From an uncultured Candidatus Saccharibacteria bacterium (GTDB lineage: Bacteria > Patescibacteriota > Dojkabacteria > J137), in contig CAYTGI010000006.1 of NCBI GenBank assembly GCA_964437465.1, forward strand, positions 1 through 44,956: a stretch of DNA of 44,956 bases, written 5' to 3'. A program made the position numbers and the translations under genes. The notes under the pieces are model-generated. The model saw only the letters and a list, made by a program, of their open reading frames with translations, made no database searches and was not told the origin of the DNA. Below, one piece after another: positions 17,918 through 36,609 of this stretch. Each line of letters begins with the position of its first letter. Positions within the stretch are counted from its first letter, which is position 1.

Positions 17918-17979
17918 AATTTATTGATATATCTCAGTATACACCAAATGCGTTAAGTCCAAAGTTAAAAGTCAAAATT

Positions 17980-20900
17980 CTATGCTTTAGTTATTTTGAA
18001 ACTAATCTCTTCATCTCCGATTTTTGCCTTTAATGCTTCTTCGTCTAACTCAGATTCTTTAATACTTTTTGCCTTAACTGATTGTGATAGATCATTATTA
18101 AGAGTGATGAATAGATTTTTTAGGAACTCGCTATCAGTAGAATATTGAAGGTTAATTTGATCATTCATCTGAAGTTTCATTTTCTTCCTTGCTGCTTGAA
18201 TATTTCTTGTTAATTCTCGCAATGCACCTTCCATTCTTAGCTCATCATTTATCTCAAGGTTTAATCCAACCTGTATTCCAAGGGTAGTATCTCCAATAAC
18301 TTTTACAGTCTCTGATTCTTCAAATTCAAATTTCTCCATCGCTTCCTTTACATTTAATTCTTTTTGAATCAGTTCTTTCATCCATCCAGTTAATGCACCA
18401 AGATCTTCATTAGTTGAATGAACGTATAGCTCTGATAAAGGTTGTCTTACTTTTTGCCCATTCTCAACTCTTAGATTATGTCCAAATTCAACAATCTTTC
18501 TAATAAGTGACATTTCAGTTTCAATTTTTGTATATTCCTCTATGAACTTCTGATCATGAGTAGGGAAGTCAGTTAAGTGAATTGATTCTTCCTTATCTTG
18601 TAATTCTCCAAATATAATTTCTCTGTAGATATGATCAGTGATGAAAGGAGCAAACGGAGCAAGTAGCTTTAATGTTTCTACTAAAACGTAGTAAAGAACC
18701 TCTAAAGCTCTATGATCTCCAGCTCCAAATCTATCTCGATTAGATCTAATGTACCATTTTGAAGTTTCAGATATTAGATCGGAAATTGGTTTCAAAGCCT
18801 TTGGCACAATGTAACTTTCCATATTCTCGTTAACTTCTTTTATAGTTTTTTGGAGCTTTACCAAAATCCATTCATCTAAATTATTCTCGATATCATCAAA
18901 AGGAATGTGATCCCAAGGGTGTGAATCACCAGTTACATTTCTTTTATTGTAGGCAAGATCTTCAGTTGGTTGCCAGTTATGCATATTTGCATATGTTGTT
19001 AAGTAGCTGTAGATGTTCCAAAGAGGAAGAGTAATTTCTTGAACCTGTAGTTTTAAATCTTTCTCATTGAAGTTAATATCCTCTCCTACTAATAGAGGGC
19101 TTCCTAAAAAATATAATCTTAATGCGTCTCCACCGTATTTTTCAATAGTTTGTTTAGGATCAGGATAATTTTTAAAACTCTTACTCATTTTTCTTCCATC
19201 TGTTCCTGCCATATTCCCTGTTACTATGACATTTTTGAAAGGTGCCTTGTCAAAAACGATTGTAGAGACTCGAATTAAAACATTAAACCAAGCTCTAATT
19301 TGCCCTACATATTCAGCGATATAATCAGCAGGAAAATTATTTTCGAAAATTTCTTTATTCTCAAAAGGGTAGTGCCATTCAGCTACAGGGACGGATCCTG
19401 AGTCTAGCCAGTTATCTAACACATCAGGAATTCGATGATACTCTTTTCCATCTTTAGTTAAAACGATCTTATCGCAAACATCTCGATGAAGCATAACCCT
19501 CTCATCTCCAAAGTACCAAACTCCATCTTTCTCTTTTATCTGATCATTGTACTCGCTCATCTCTTCAATACTTCCAACTACAATCTCATCTCCATCTTCA
19601 GATCTCCAAATTGGCATAATCGTTGCCCAGTATCTTGTTCTTGAAATTCCCCAATCTGGAGCATTTTTGATTACTTCAGCCATTCGTCCTTCCTGAAAAT
19701 GATCTGGAATCCAATTTATATCTTTATTAACCTCAAGCATTCTATCTTTAACCTTATTTATATTTACAAAATATGAATCTTGAGCTTTATATATCAATGG
19801 ATTATCTCCTCTGAAGAATGGTAGTCTGTGTCTGTAAATTTCTGACTTTAAGAGATTTCCTTTCTTTTTAAGATCCTCTTTAATTGGCTCAGCAGCATCC
19901 CTAAGATAAGTTCCCTTAAATTCTCCAACGGTTAAATTTCCTTCATCGTCAATATCTTGATGATCACTTAATTTGAACTTTTCTCCTAATTCAAAGTCTT
20001 CTGCTCCGAATCCAGGAGCTACATGAAGTACACCTGTTCCATCATCTGTAGTAACTCCTTCATATAGATAAACCTTAAAATCATTATCAGTAGTGTCTTT
20101 TACAAAATAATCATAAACTGGTTCGTATTCTAATCCCTCGAGATCTTTACCTTTGATTTCGTTTTTAATTGTTAAATTTTTATGATCATCTCCGAAGATA
20201 TACTCTAATCTTTTCTTAGCAACAACAAGGTTACCTTCTTCATGTTCAATGACTACATAATCTTCTTTAGGGTTGACTGCCAGGGCAAAGTTAGAAGGAA
20301 TTGTCCAAGGAGTTGTTGTCCATGCAACTATAAAAGTATTTTCTGATCCTTTGATTTTTTCTGGTTTTTTCAATTTAAATTTCACAAAAATACTTAGATC
20401 ATCAACATCTTGGTAGTTATTAGATTCAGCAACCTCAAATTCTGAAACTGGTGTTGCAGTGTCTGTAGAGAAGAGCGAGACTCTTTTTCCTTTGTATACA
20501 AAGCCTTTTTCATGCATTTGTTTAAATACCCAGATGACTGATTCATTGAATTCAGGATTCATTGTGTAGTAGGCATTTTCCATATCCACCCATCTTCCAA
20601 CTGAATCGATATACCATTCCCATTGGCTAGTTACCTCTTCAACATGTTTTCTACATTCCTTTACATAGTTATCAATTCCAAATTCTTCTACATCAGCTCG
20701 GCTCTTAAGATTAAATTTCTCATTAACTTTTGCTTCAATAGGTAATCCATGACAGTCCCAACCCCAAACTCTTCTAATCTTTTTACCTCTCATTGCCCAA
20801 TATCGTGTAACTGGGTCTTTAGTAATTGAGGATAGTAAAGAACCGTAATGAGGCATTCCGGTTACAAAAGGTGGTCCATCAACAAAAGTATATCGATTAT

Positions 20901-21012
20901 CTTCATCTTTGGATTCAATCGATTTTTCAAAAATTTTATTTTCTTTCCAGAACTTCAAAACTTCCTGTTCTAAATCAAAGAAATTTTGTCTTGGGTTTGG
21001 TTTGTTAAACAT
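17980..21012 (-). CDS. ileS: Isoleucine--tRNA ligase, type 2 (archaeal/eukaryote-like)
   Basis: DGPPFVTGMPHYGS, GWDCHGLP, WTTTPWT, DWGISRTRYW, GRKMSKSFKNYPDP; no C-terminal Zn finger. Confidence 0.97.
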   Translation of the reverse strand: MFNKPNPRQNFFDLEQEVLKFWKENKIFEKSIESKDEDNRYTFVDGPPFVTGMPHYGSLLSSITKDPVTRYWAMRGKKIRRVWGWDCHGLPIEAKVNEKFNLKSRADVEEFGIDNYVKECRKHVEEVTSQWEWYIDSVGRWVDMENAYYTMNPEFNESVIWVFKQMHEKGFVYKGKRVSLFSTDTATPVSEFEVAESNNYQDVDDLSIFVKFKLKKPEKIKGSENTFIVAWTTTPWTIPSNFALAVNPKEDYVVIEHEEGNLVVAKKRLEYIFGDDHKNLTIKNEIKGKDLEGLEYEPVYDYFVKDTTDNDFKVYLYEGVTTDDGTGVLHVAPGFGAEDFELGEKFKLSDHQDIDDEGNLTVGEFKGTYLRDAAEPIKEDLKKKGNLLKSEIYRHRLPFFRGDNPLIYKAQDSYFVNINKVKDRMLEVNKDINWIPDHFQEGRMAEVIKNAPDWGISRTRYWATIMPIWRSEDGDEIVVGSIEEMSEYNDQIKEKDGVWYFGDERVMLHRDVCDKIVLTKDGKEYHRIPDVLDNWLDSGSVPVAEWHYPFENKEIFENNFPADYIAEYVGQIRAWFNVLIRVSTIVFDKAPFKNVIVTGNMAGTDGRKMSKSFKNYPDPKQTIEKYGGDALRLYFLGSPLLVGEDINFNEKDLKLQVQEITLPLWNIYSYLTTYANMHNWQPTEDLAYNKRNVTGDSHPWDHIPFDDIENNLDEWILVKLQKTIKEVNENMESYIVPKALKPISDLISETSKWYIRSNRDRFGAGDHRALEVLYYVLVETLKLLAPFAPFITDHIYREIIFGELQDKEESIHLTDFPTHDQKFIEEYTKIETEMSLIRKIVEFGHNLRVENGQKVRQPLSELYVHSTNEDLGALTGWMKELIQKELNVKEAMEKFEFEESETVKVIGDTTLGIQVGLNLEINDELRMEGALRELTRNIQAARKKMKLQMNDQINLQYSTDSEFLKNLFITLNNDLSQSVKAKSIKESELDEEALKAKIGDEEISFKITKA

Positions 21013-21071
21013 TTCTAAAGATATAAGATTTAAGATAAGAGATCTAAGATTTCTTGGATCTGAGATTTTTA
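21013..21071 (-). repeat. 3' heptamer arm (xxATCTY) of the four-helix-bundle gene
   Basis: Minus strand: aaatctc agatcca ag aaatctt agatctc ttatctt aaatctt atatctt, running up to the ileS start. Confidence 0.8.
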
Positions 21072-21406
21072 ATTATGGTGTAAATCATTTTTTTAAGCTC
21101 ATCAATTTTCATCTCAGTATGTTCCCAGCTTTTATTTTGTATATATTTAAGATCATGAGAAATCTCAATCATAGTTGATACTTCGTTTAGTGAACCCAGT
21201 GCTATATTTAGGAAATTTGCGAATTCTTTATCCGTTTGCCTTACTGCTCCTTCAGCAATATTTGCAAGAATTGAAACGCCAGCTCGTCTAATTTGATTGG
21301 TTAATCCAAATTTTTCTTCTTCGGGAAATGTTGAAGTTATTGTATATATATCTTTAACTAAGTCCTTAGATACTTGCCATATTTTTAACTGCTTGTAGTT
21401 ATGCAT
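21044..21406 (-). CDS. Four-helix-bundle protein (23S rRNA IVS protein-like, TIGR02436-type)
   Basis: YKQLKIWQ, FPEEEKFGLTNQIRRAGVSI.ANIAEG, FLNIALGSLNE. Confidence 0.93.
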   Translation of the reverse strand: MHNYKQLKIWQVSKDLVKDIYTITSTFPEEEKFGLTNQIRRAGVSILANIAEGAVRQTDKEFANFLNIALGSLNEVSTMIEISHDLKYIQNKSWEHTEMKIDELKKMIYTIIKNLRSKKS

Positions 21407-21445
21407 TGTTTCTTTTGTCTAAATTCTTTTATCTGGTGTCTTAAA
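21407..21445 (-). repeat. 5' heptamer arm (xxAGAxx) of the four-helix-bundle gene
   Basis: Minus strand: taagaca ccagata aaagaat ttagaca aaagaaa directly before the ATG; reverse-complementary in character to the 3' arm. Confidence 0.7.
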
Positions 21446-21537
21446 GAGGACTGGATCGCCCAGTGGTACCACCTCATTTTCCCGATGAAGAAATCGGGAC
21501 GCTCATTTTAGCTATTTCGGGCTCTCCCGCCTAGGTC

Positions 21538-21567
21538 TAGTCTCCTACGCTAAAGCTTCGGAGACTA
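21538..21567. repeat. REP-like palindrome (CCTACGCTAAAGCTTCGG type) inside the T-box
   Basis: TAGTCTCC-tacgctaaagcttc-GGAGACTA, perfect 8-bp stem. Confidence 0.7.
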
Positions 21568-21605
21568 AACTCCAAAAACTTTAACAGCTTGCCAATTTCG
21601 TCTTG

Positions 21606-21631
21606 ATCTACGAAGCCTTGGCGAAGTAGAT
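21606..21631. repeat. REP-like palindrome (CGAAGCCTTGGCGAAG type) inside the T-box
   Basis: ATCTAC-gaagccttggcgaa-GTAGAT. Confidence 0.7.
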
Positions 21632-21700
21632 TTCTTCTAAGTGCTCTGGAGTGATATCTCGTCTGCTTTTGGCATGAGCTCCTTCTACGCGTTCATTTTG

Positions 21701-21709
21701 ATTTTATCA
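21701..21709 (-). promoter_or_regulatory. Putative extended -10 promoter for the T-box/ileS leader
   Basis: Minus strand TG-A-TAAAAT about 7 nt upstream of the first T-box motif. Confidence 0.5.
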
Positions 21710-21713
21710 CAGT

Positions 21714-22529
21714 TTAATAGTCAAATTCCTCAAATGGAGGATTAATTAATCTCATGTCCTGATTAAGGGAATCCATAATTTCAGTTTGTTCTTTCGATAG
21801 GTGGATGTCCTGACTTTTAAAGTTTTCTTCAATATGCTCTTTAGAGCCTGCTTTTGGAATTGTGATTATGTCTTTGTCAAGTAACCATGACAGAATTGCC
21901 TGGGCTGTGCTAGCTCCAATTTCTTCAGCAATATCTTTAATCTCCTTTATATCTAAATCTTTTCCCCTTGCAATAGGGGAATATGCTGTTAAATAAATAC
22001 CATGATCCATACAGAAATCATAAAGATCCTTTTGGTAAAGGGTAGGGTGGAATTCAACTTGGTTATTTGAAATTTCAAATCCTTCTTCATGAATTCTCTC
22101 AATATGTTTAATAGTGAAATTAGAAACTCCATAAGAATTAATTAGACCTTTTTCTTTAGCTTTTTCCATTGCTTCAAGAGTATCCATGATCGGAATATTG
22201 CTATCTGGCCAATGAACAAGATAAAGATCTAGGTAATCTAAGCTAAGCTCATCTAAATTTCTTTTTAATGAATCTATGAGTTGGTCTTTTTTTAAGTTAT
22301 CTCTCCAAACTTTAGAAGTTACGAAAAGCTCAGATCTTTTAACATTACTGTTTTTAATTCCTTTCCCAACTTCATTATGATTGCCGTACATATCTGCAGT
22401 ATCAATATGTCTATAGCCAACTTCTAGGGCGTATTCAATAGACTCAATGCAATTGTCTCCAGTTAATTGCCATGTACCAATCCCAAGAAGTGGTATTTCG
22501 TTGCCATGTTTAAGTTTTACTTTACGCAT
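21714..22529 (-). CDS. Aldo/keto reductase
   Basis: LGIGTW, GYRHIDTADMYGN, LFVTSKVW, YLDLYLVHWP, GVSNF, AYSPIARG, IPKA. Confidence 0.95.
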   Translation of the reverse strand: MRKVKLKHGNEIPLLGIGTWQLTGDNCIESIEYALEVGYRHIDTADMYGNHNEVGKGIKNSNVKRSELFVTSKVWRDNLKKDQLIDSLKRNLDELSLDYLDLYLVHWPDSNIPIMDTLEAMEKAKEKGLINSYGVSNFTIKHIERIHEEGFEISNNQVEFHPTLYQKDLYDFCMDHGIYLTAYSPIARGKDLDIKEIKDIAEEIGASTAQAILSWLLDKDIITIPKAGSKEHIEENFKSQDIHLSKEQTEIMDSLNQDMRLINPPFEEFDY

Positions 22530-29288: not shown

Positions 29289-29339
29289 AAATTTATTAAT
29301 ACTCCGCCTGCTGGATTCGAACCAGCAACCTACCGGTTA

Positions 29340-29740
29340 CACTTAACCTGTAATTTTCATTACAGCGTGGACTATCTCATCACCATACGATTTCTCATTT
29401 AGGTGTCGGGCGCTCTAGGGTGTAAATCACCTAGTCTCTGAACCTTTTCCATTTTGTTGGAACTTGGCTGCGGATTACCTTAGAATTTCCTTAGGCTTCC
29501 CGCAATTCACCCGATGTTCATTCCTGATTTTCATCAGGAAGCTGCGTGATTCCGCTATGTATTTCCCGATGACAGTTTGAATATACAAGAATGCACTTAT
29601 CTAACTCTGTTTTAACCTTTTGCCAAGATCTTGTTAGCCCTCTTTGTGAAAGCCCAAAATCTTTATTTGCACGATCTTTGTATTTTCTATTGTCAATCTT
29701 TCCCATATATAAAAATGGGGATTAATAATAGCTAGTGAAC
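29340..29740 (-). mobile_element. Group I self-splicing intron (401 nt)
   Basis: P GAAUUGCGGGAAG (29496-29508), Q AAUCCGCAGCCAAG (29463-29479), R GUUCAGAGACUA (29432-29444), S GAGAUAGUCC (29369-29380); terminal G; exon U paired to GCAGC guide (29541-29545); GAAA-capped P2 and P9. Confidence 0.93.
29518..29706 (-). pseudogene. Degenerate HNH homing endonuclease ORF inside the intron P1 loop
   Basis: KDFGLSQRGLTRSWQKVKTELDKCILVYSNCHREIH resembles the C-terminal half of Zn-HNH endonucleases; the central CxxC/His segment is missing. Confidence 0.75.
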
Positions 29741-36168: not shown

Positions 36169-36609
36169 GGGGGATGCTAAATTCGACAATATATTAAAGG
36201 TTTTAAAGCAAGTCAGGGGATTGATTTGATCCTGCTGCGAACAAAAACAAATCGCCAAATAAATAACAACCCTGTTGTTAATGCTCTAAATAAAGCTGCT
36301 GATGCAGTTGGAAACTTCCTATTCGGAACACCTAACTACAACATCGCTTAATTTTAGGGTGTATGCTGAAAACAAAAAGTAAGCATGCCGTTTATATGAT
36401 TCTTTCCTGATGGATGAATATAAACGCCCAATTAGTCAGGATGCAATTAATATTTTTGATTTATAAATATTAATCAAGACTTTAATAAATCCTAAAAAGC
36501 TCATTTTTGCTTAGTTTTTATTAGCTTTTTAGAAAAATAAACTAAGATAAGCTTGTAACAACTTTATCTCATTTGATTTATTGGACACGGGTATCCGTCA
36601 TCTCCACCA
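36169..36609 (+). ncRNA. ssrA: tmRNA, one-piece, with reduced D-loop and T-arm; predicted tag (A)NNPVVNALNKAADAVGNFLFGTPNYNIA at 36265-36351
   Basis: Acceptor GGGGAUG/CAUCUCC-A-CCA with G3-U70; UUCGAC; helix 2 pairings CAAUA/UAUUG, UAAAGGUU/AACUUUA, GCAAG/CUUGU; pk1 GAUUUG/CAAAUC; tag ends IA-stop. Confidence 0.92.

Follow-up and report, generated by a model that had tools for sequence, protein, structure and literature searches.

Inverted heptamer arms around a four-helix-bundle gene between a T-box leader and ileS, and around members of its family

We have found a gene of the 23S rRNA intervening sequence (IVS) protein family, encoding a four-helix bundle, that lies between two inverted arms of 7-nt repeats ahead of the isoleucyl-tRNA synthetase gene ileS on contig CAYTGI010000006.1 (assembly GCA_964437465.1). 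The assembly belongs to an uncultured Candidatus Saccharibacteria bacterium that is placed in the Dojkabacteria by GTDB, and the stretch analyzed, positions 1 to 44,956, is referred to here as the window. The whole finding lies on the minus strand, which reads 5′ to 3′ as T-box leader, 5′ arm, open reading frame (ORF), 3′ arm and ileS. The two arms are the sole phased-AGA sites in the window, are mutually inverted around the ORF and occur beyond chance. Inverted heptamer arms are the rule for this gene family, being present in over 100 sampled loci. We are confident that the gene and its arms constitute a cassette, and we consider it likely that the cassette was acquired by insertion. Our overall interpretation, held with modest confidence, is that of an IVS-type cassette that travels as a unit, is transcribed by read-through from its host and has arms able to pair in the transcript.

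As we envisage it, the cassette would consist of the 5′ phased heptamers, the PF05635 gene and the reverse-complement 3′ array, moving as one unit. It would have arrived by insertion between the T-box leader and ileS, where it would be transcribed by read-through from the T-box promoter. In the transcript, the arms would pair in heptamer register (AGAUA:UAUCU, AAGA:UCUU, AGA:UCU and AAGA:UCUU) and loop out the ORF, giving a stem of the kind that RNase III cuts in 23S rRNA IVSs. The window copy would be an old or relaxed member, in which only the AGA/UCU cores survive.

Heptamer arms in the window and across the gene family

The 5′ arm is composed of five nnAGAnn heptamers in perfect 7-nt phase, followed by CA and the ATG of the ORF (21406). 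The 3′ arm has five phased nnnATCT heptamers (GAAATCT, TAGATCT, CTTATCT, TAAATCT and TATATCT; 21053-21019), the second of which contains the ORF stop codon, TAG (21046-21044). Two extra ATCT/ATCC units (21066-21056) are shifted by 2 nt and fall within the last codons of the ORF, and the ileS ATG (21012) begins 6 nt (TTAGAA) past the last heptamer. An earlier reading of the DNA from sequence alone (the sequence-only reading) had counted five heptamers upstream and about seven downstream. Its count was correct, with five phased units on one side and five phased plus two out-of-phase units on the other.

A pattern search for AGA-N4-AGA-N4-AGA-N4-AGA returned exactly four matches in the 44,956 bp: an overlapping minus-strand pair in the 5′ arm (21411-21441) and a plus-strand pair in the 3′ arm (21019-21049). 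In shuffles of the window, 0.03 such matches are expected and four were never obtained. A search for three exact ATCT-N3 units found a match in the window only at 21019-21050, and TRF reported a period-7 array at 21018-21050. We give almost no credence to the explanation that this is an ordinary small gene with AT-rich flanks that are repetitive by chance or low complexity. The AT-rich genome and an arm duplex energy no better than that of composition-matched shuffles would agree with it, whereas the confinement of the phased pattern to the two flanks of the gene in 45 kb, and the same layout in over 100 other loci, argue strongly against it.

Two further heptamer arrays were noted. A short period-7 array on the plus strand (AAGTCAA x3.3; 17955-17977) lies right after the ileS stop codon, with no inverted partner seen. 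A sequencing run of the source sample (X1), from the same microbial-mat community, contains a 158-nt contig that matches 21018-21052 and carries a longer AGAT-type heptamer array with different flanks. Its roughly nine units are arranged in two stretches 9 nt apart, and it may represent another cassette arm or an ORF-less array.

The protein scores 137 bits against PF05635 (cut-off 33.8), with residues 5-109 on profile positions 1-105 of 106, and 134.7 bits against TIGR02436 (cut-off 24). Its matches in the Protein Data Bank are 2GSC (XCC0516; E 1.4e-22) and 2RLD (E 6e-10), with five chains in each entry. The window protein retains each of the 17 residues found to be invariant across its 31 nearest relatives (32-sequence alignment), and the closest of its protein relatives is only 58% identical. 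A single-sequence search indicated a family of 21,426 clusters at 50% identity. To our knowledge, the PF05635/TIGR02436 family has been without an assigned function since 1993, save for its cousin Avd of diversity-generating retroelements (DGRs).

Avd has a related four-helix-bundle fold and is likewise a pentamer, and the window protein matches two Avd models weakly. Both scores fall under their cut-offs (bAvd, 34.8 bits against 40; the DGR Avd equivalog NF033474, 38.2 bits against 80). No reverse transcriptase was found among 12 scanned flanking ORFs of at least 90 aa (12.7-30.9 kb), which include parA, parB, an amidase, RNase Y, an aldo-keto reductase, TrmB and fmt, nor was a template repeat found among these neighbors. 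Avd genes, moreover, are not defined by flanking heptamer arrays, unlike the family described here. On the sub-threshold scores and the missing reverse transcriptase, we rejected the reading of the window gene as the Avd accessory gene of a DGR, the probability of which we regard as negligible. A role in anti-phage defence was also rejected, the window protein having no match among PADLOC models.

The arms were surveyed in a metagenomic sample of 80 loci encoding relatives 39-55% identical, of which 71 non-redundant loci were analyzed. Four loci of the closest proteins (52-58% identity; L162, L164, L165 and L166) were added, and a second, independent sample comprised 46 viral-contig loci. On inspection by eye, nearly every sampled gene has tandem 7-nt (at times 8-nt) units upstream, and its downstream flank is the reverse complement of these units, often from the stop codon onward. 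The unit pairs vary by locus, for example GTGGTCA/TGACCAC, GTTACGA/TCGTAAC, GGCAAGG/CCTTGCC, TTAGTCC/GGACTAA and TGAGACA/TGTCTCA. In the 71 loci, the mean self-match of either flank has maxima at lags 7, 14 and 21, reaching 0.42 and 0.44 at lag 7 versus a background of about 0.28. The best lag is 7 in 40/71 and 45/71 flanks and 8 in 12/71 and 16/71. Flanks of the same gene share a median of 9 inverted 6-mers, versus 2.1 between different loci, and at least three are shared in 61 of the 71. Duplexes of own flanks have a median energy of -27.9 kcal/mol, versus -16.1 kcal/mol for other-locus pairs. Typical arrays span 29-33 nt, or about 4-5 units. The viral sample gave lag-7 values of 0.38 and 0.40, a best lag of 7 in 26/46 and 29/46 flanks, and inverted 6-mers in 35/46 loci. 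The question posed by the sequence-only reading, whether other four-helix-bundle genes carry such arms, is thereby answered clearly in the affirmative by lag-7 peaks and reverse-complement flanks in both samples. Control flanks of other genes (L082-L161) show a faint lag-7 excess, with a best lag of 7 in 20-27% versus 11% at equal lags, which fits scattered solo heptamer arrays.

The loci of the closest proteins resemble the window most. Phased (T)AGA units span the interval from the previous stop codon to the ATG in L162, L164 and L165, and in L165 clear phased TCTA units reach the ATG of the next gene, as in the window. The arms of L166 are weaker on both sides. Like the window copy, four of the six nearest relatives have at least three phased AGA units upstream. 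Across the family, protein similarity and arm type show no overall correlation (rho 0.05). On the sense strand, purines prevail in the upstream arm and pyrimidines in the downstream arm (0.62 vs 0.42; 54/71 loci; p 2e-8). The idea that the arms provide stops in three frames was dropped, as all frames are closed in 31/71 loci versus 31% in shuffles, a weak effect. As a separate observation, plasmid gamma of Nostoc sp. PCC 7120 (L168, 1440-1920) carries a family gene among insertion sequence elements, with the same protein on plasmid alpha. Downstream of the L168 gene are CTTCTGC/CCTCTGC heptamers, and the upstream repeats, ACTTCAA, are not complementary to them.

Family genes sit inside operons. 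Both neighbors are co-oriented with the gene in 46 of 52 loci in which both are visible (baseline 66%; p 2e-4), and the median gaps to the neighbors are 70 and 52 nt, roughly the arms' own length. This agrees with the sequence-only reading, which had described the cassette as one that inserts into operons. Among the closest relatives, the sites are the trpG-trpD gap (L164 and L166) and the fadJ-fadA gap (L162 and L165). At another locus, L142, three RNA-seq runs yielded assembled contigs (about 97% identical) that continue unbroken over the upstream gene, arm, ORF, arm and downstream gene. A contig from a fourth RNA run spans both arms into the downstream gene, and no joints were reported in any of these contigs. 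This is as expected if the cassette is co-transcribed with its host genes, with the reservation that DNA carry-over is possible and that contigs are blind to partial cleavage. The orientation along the host operon and the polarity of the arms both point to transcription or translation.

Table 1. Position and basis of the features of the cassette locus in the window
Feature	Coordinates	Strand	Basis
Promoter-like site TTGACT-18-CAAAAT	21695..21724	-	Consensus match only; upstream of the T-box
T-box leader	21443..21648	-	Rfam RF00230, 50.4 bits (under the Rfam cut-off of 93 bits), E 6e-10, model positions 1-219 (full length)
5′ arm	21409..21443	-	TAAGACA, CCAGATA, AAAGAAT, TTAGACA, AAAGAAA; read from sequence
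Four-helix-bundle gene (23S rRNA IVS protein family)	21044..21406	-	Intact ORF, 120 aa, ATG start
3′ arm region	21013..21066	-	Five phased nnnATCT heptamers, two out-of-phase units and TTAGAA
ileS (isoleucyl-tRNA synthetase)	17980..21012	-	ORF list, 1010 aa

The T-box leader and sites without the gene

The leader upstream of the cassette shares with T-box leaders of aminoacyl-tRNA synthetase genes its place upstream of ileS and its Stem I, Stem III, T-box sequence (GGTGGTACC) and antiterminator, as well as an AUC at the specifier position (GUAG-AUC-A). The ileS T-boxes of relatives score 46-57 bits against the same Rfam model. It differs from such leaders in what follows the antiterminator, the cassette being found in the place of a terminator or sequestrator. 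In alignments, relatives carry the 3′ strand of a terminator (GAGGGGC-TTTTT) after the T-box, and the window is without it. The sequence-only reading had placed the cassette under tRNA-Ile control; the T-box on which that proposal drew is present, but the terminator or sequestrator through which it would act was not found. With the T-box deprived of its terminator half, the likely outcomes for ileS are constitutive read-through or a form of control that cannot be seen in the sequence. Promoter-like sites are fewer than in shuffles, so the promoter call upstream of the T-box is weak.

IleS is, over its first 400 aa, at best 67% identical to IleS of Patescibacteria, with genomes labelled Dojkabacteria nearest, and the N-terminus MF(N/K)(K/Q)PN is common to the window and these relatives. 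At the specifier site (window 21600-21590; AUC = Ile), the ileS leaders of L078, L012, L059, L067 and L010-L011 read ACC (Thr) in the same context. Either the register differs in these leaders or they sense another tRNA.

Sites without the gene exist among relatives, as the sequence-only reading had suggested looking for. None of 80 ileS loci of relatives has a family gene in its leader. In four of them (L007, L008, L010 and L011) the T-box is followed by the terminator 3′ strand with its T-run and then the ATG, over 72-80 nt versus 430 nt in the window. The closest reference genomes (L002-L006) are without any T-box. A compost metagenome run (X3) contains a 3,416-nt contig that matches ileS (20374-21012) at 83% and T-box Stem I (21536-21646) at 95%. 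Between the two matches it has 226 nt, versus 523 in the window, and the 363-nt ORF cannot fit in this interval. At the end next to ileS, the sense strand reads TTGTCCTTTATTCTTTTTTCCTTTGAAATT before the ATG, with a T-rich stretch 10-25 nt before the ATG. At the other end, the 30 nt next to 21536 are homologous to the T-box, so the remainder of the T-box must fall within the 226 nt.

Two features of the X3 relative complicate the picture of a simple insertion. Its 226-nt leader is known from its 30-nt ends alone, and the cassette, at about 433 nt, exceeds the 297-nt length difference, so that the event was not a clean insertion but either replaced about 130 nt or combined an insertion with a deletion. 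The roughly 130 nt absent from the window are, most simply, the terminator and spacer. Judged by these alignments, the cassette appears to stand in place of the T-box expression platform, that is, the terminator and short spacer of the relatives. The earlier statement that the element inserts neutrally is accordingly in doubt, given that it occupies the place of the relatives' terminator. The loss of an expression platform to an insertion would amount to a natural experiment on how far an essential synthetase gene tolerates it.

A family copy near the Saccharibacteria ileS of L059 was considered as a second case and set aside as coincidence. It is a pseudogene (2079-2440) with an in-frame TAA after codon 80, located 0.7 kb upstream of ileS, and a thioredoxin-like ORF and a complete T-box with its terminator lie between the two.

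Pairing of the arms and competing explanations

The arms of the window copy have some propensity to pair. In the partition function of a 478-nt transcript, they are each other's preferred partners, with 16 arm-arm pairs in heptamer register at p 0.37-0.63 (ensemble folding). The expected number of arm-arm pairs is 12.3, versus 1.1 ± 3.0 with a shuffled 3′ arm, and 2 of 60 shuffles reach 12.3. Other cassettes with AGA-type arms have duplexes of -16 to -42 kcal/mol (z -2 to -6).

A number of observations count against the interpretation of a cassette acting through paired RNA arms. The arm duplex of the window copy amounts to only -11.2 to -12 kcal/mol; dinucleotide shuffles of the arms average -10.1 ± 2.6 kcal/mol, and 150 of 500 match the observed -11.2. 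The minimum free energy fold of 20990-21460 leaves the arms unpaired, the region gains nothing over shuffles in folding stability (z +0.99), and the window copy is in the weakest 11% of the family by arm duplex energy. Across the family, arm duplexes are as stable on the sense as on the antisense strand (26 vs 26), and a G·U strand bias on the sense strand is absent (counts 264 vs 331). No RNA run that was searched holds the window sequence. No minus-strand terminator or sequestrator was found between 21443 and 21012, downstream of the antiterminator. Finally, a promoter-like stretch that lies inside the arms of some cassettes would yield transcripts without the 5′ arm. This stretch was seen in six viral contigs (L185, L200, L177, L173, L205 and L193), where the 25-35-nt spacer from the 5′ arm to the ATG holds a TAnnTTTG-like sequence that we take to resemble the -7 promoter element of Bacteroidetes. 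Should this resemblance hold, the arms of some cassettes would enclose a promoter belonging to the cassette itself.

The helix of the window copy is therefore predicted to be interrupted and marginal, made of 3-5-bp blocks, and a poor substrate for RNase III. Since it is interrupted and weak, efficient excision by RNase III is unlikely in this copy, and we doubt that the window transcript is cleaved there. For the long, imperfect helix proposed by the sequence-only reading, the picture is mixed: the minimum free energy structure and the shuffled duplexes speak against a stable stem, and the ensemble gives about 12 expected pairs. For the family as a whole, a functional pairing of the arms in RNA is a tentative proposition that we would neither press nor dismiss. 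The RNA-stem model leads, and models in which the arms act at the DNA level or as protein-binding sites are serious rivals.

In the DNA-level model, which we judge rather unlikely to be the full account, the arms are terminal inverted repeats that serve mobility or recombination, with pairing in the RNA as a side effect. Their complementarity would result from the insertion mechanism, from hairpin- or cruciform-templated repair or from slippage, and the use that RNase III makes of the RNA pairing in rRNA copies would be incidental. The absence of a sense-strand G·U bias, by which complementarity is not visibly maintained at the RNA level, favors this model; the complementarity gives the impression of arising or being restored in the DNA, or of being the neutrally decaying remainder of a perfect repeat. 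Heptamer copy number that differs between strains in Coxiella and Xanthomonas, about 70 ORF-less convergent heptamer pairs in Xanthomonas (PMC4692102), the weak lag-7 excess seen elsewhere between genes in genomes that carry the family and the promoter-like stretch inside some arms all lend it further support. It is harder to reconcile with the strong co-orientation with host genes and with the purine/pyrimidine polarity of the arms. Arm sequences are unconserved across the family, so that no common recombinase site is apparent, and the cassettes come with no linked transposase or recombinase.

In the binding model, which we hold to be improbable, the heptamers are phased RNA or DNA binding sites for the homopentameric four-helix-bundle protein or for a host factor. 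The protein would wrap around or coat roughly five units of 7 nt; control of its own translation and protection of flanking mRNA are examples of what this might serve. The window copy keeps 5/5 and 5/5 cores despite its decayed helix, and this fits protein recognition, perhaps by a pentamer, better than simple decay of a helix. Nine cassettes with AGA-type arms, the window copy among them, show AGA in a steady phase and wide variation at the remaining four positions (0.14-0.53 bits); the AGA triplet was itself used to pick these units, and its core value of 2 bits is built into the selection. The usual array length of 4-5 units, the four units of most Xanthomonas arrays and the five chains of both 2GSC and 2RLD are also in line with a pentamer. 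The DGR protein Avd, moreover, binds nucleic acid. Recognition by the encoded protein is difficult to square with proteins 45-50% identical that have entirely different heptamers, with the many arrays of at least nine units and with the missing correlation between protein similarity and arm type.

A more speculative extension, to which we assign a low probability, is that the cassette is a self-propagating element of an undescribed kind, without a transposase, integrase or homing endonuclease. Its pentamer would recognize or maintain the 7-nt units. Copies that have decayed or lack an ORF would then have given rise to heptanucleotide repeats such as GGGAATC of Xanthomonas and the cyanobacterial heptamers, whose excess in bacterial intergenic regions has long been known.

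Relation to known elements and other features of the window

The nearest counterparts of the cassette are the ORF-bearing IVSs of 23S rRNA (Coxiella S23p; Leptospira), with which it shares the protein family, heptamers before the ATG and complementary arms around the ORF. In Coxiella burnetii, the 23S IVS has a 28-bp terminal inverted-repeat stem within which RNase III cuts, and three tandem GACAGAT heptamers with a degenerate fourth, their number varying by strain, lie directly before the S23p ATG (PMC4990558). The 28 bp correspond to four heptamers (4 x 7), and the nnAGAnn unit of the window is related to the Coxiella unit. The IVS-like layout that the sequence-only reading had proposed is well supported by this match in heptamers, family gene and complementary arms. 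The window copy differs in that it lies in an mRNA leader between a T-box and ileS, with no rRNA in the window; in that its arms would form interrupted 3-5-bp blocks in place of a near-perfect 28-bp stem; and in that its ORF is intact while that of Coxiella is decaying. Cutting by RNase III has been shown for the Coxiella element.

The Correia elements of Neisseria have inverted arms, are inserted between operon genes, are co-transcribed and are cut by RNase III. The cassette is alike in its inverted arms, its likely insertion within operons, its probable transcription in host mRNA and its possible use as an RNase III substrate. Correia elements have conserved terminal repeats recognized in trans and no ORF, whereas the arms of the cassette vary and enclose a conserved gene. 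The cassette was likewise rejected as a transposon or miniature inverted-repeat transposable element with conserved terminal repeats, since arm sequences differ between loci.

A possible link to described repeats is offered by Xanthomonas. Rehm et al. (PMC4692102) catalogued about 186 GGGAATC arrays, mostly of four units and located in same-strand intergenic gaps. About 70 form convergent pairs without an ORF, and heptamer copy number varies between strains; the authors propose neither a function for the arrays nor a link to the gene family. In their supplement, array #15 (GGGAATC x4; XCC0516-XCC0517) is 6 nt from bccP and overlaps the start of XCC0516, which is the family member with a solved structure (2GSC). 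Both these repeats and the GGGGAYT-like repeats of Nostoc and Calothrix resemble the cassette arms in having about four 7-nt units, short same-strand gaps, convergent pairs and variable length. They differ in being mostly without an ORF between them and in having been described as possible G-quadruplex sequences; the window heptamers are A/T-rich and incapable of forming quadruplexes. The cassette could explain where the heptanucleotide repeats of Xanthomonas and cyanobacteria, so far unaccounted for, come from.

Family genes have been reported inside cas operons (PMC3936711) and in 16S/23S insertions of bacteria of the candidate phyla radiation, in both cases with the arms unmentioned. No description of heptamer arms as a property of the family was found in the searchable literature. 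The element seems to be of a known kind in a new context, a riboswitch leader, while the family-wide arm rule seems not to have been described so far. The settings of family genes now comprise rRNA genes, cas operons, trp and fad operons, phage contigs and the riboswitch leader found here. With the arms, a "hypothetical protein" becomes a testable element with defined ends, and annotation gains a simple rule for recognizing such insertions.

Two other RNA features were observed in the window. A group I intron lies on the minus strand at 29296-29700 (RF00028, 99 bits, 29348-29600), with an HNH-like coding stretch (..CHREIH..) on its 5′ side. ARAGORN predicted no tRNA in the window, and no 5′ tRNA half was located. 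Directly after the intron is an apparent tRNA 3′ half, with a T arm (GCTGGTTCGAATCCAGC) and an acceptor (AGGCGGAGTA). On the plus strand, a transfer-messenger RNA at 36170-36609 (RF00023, 52.8 bits, just over the cut-off) has long insertions relative to the model.

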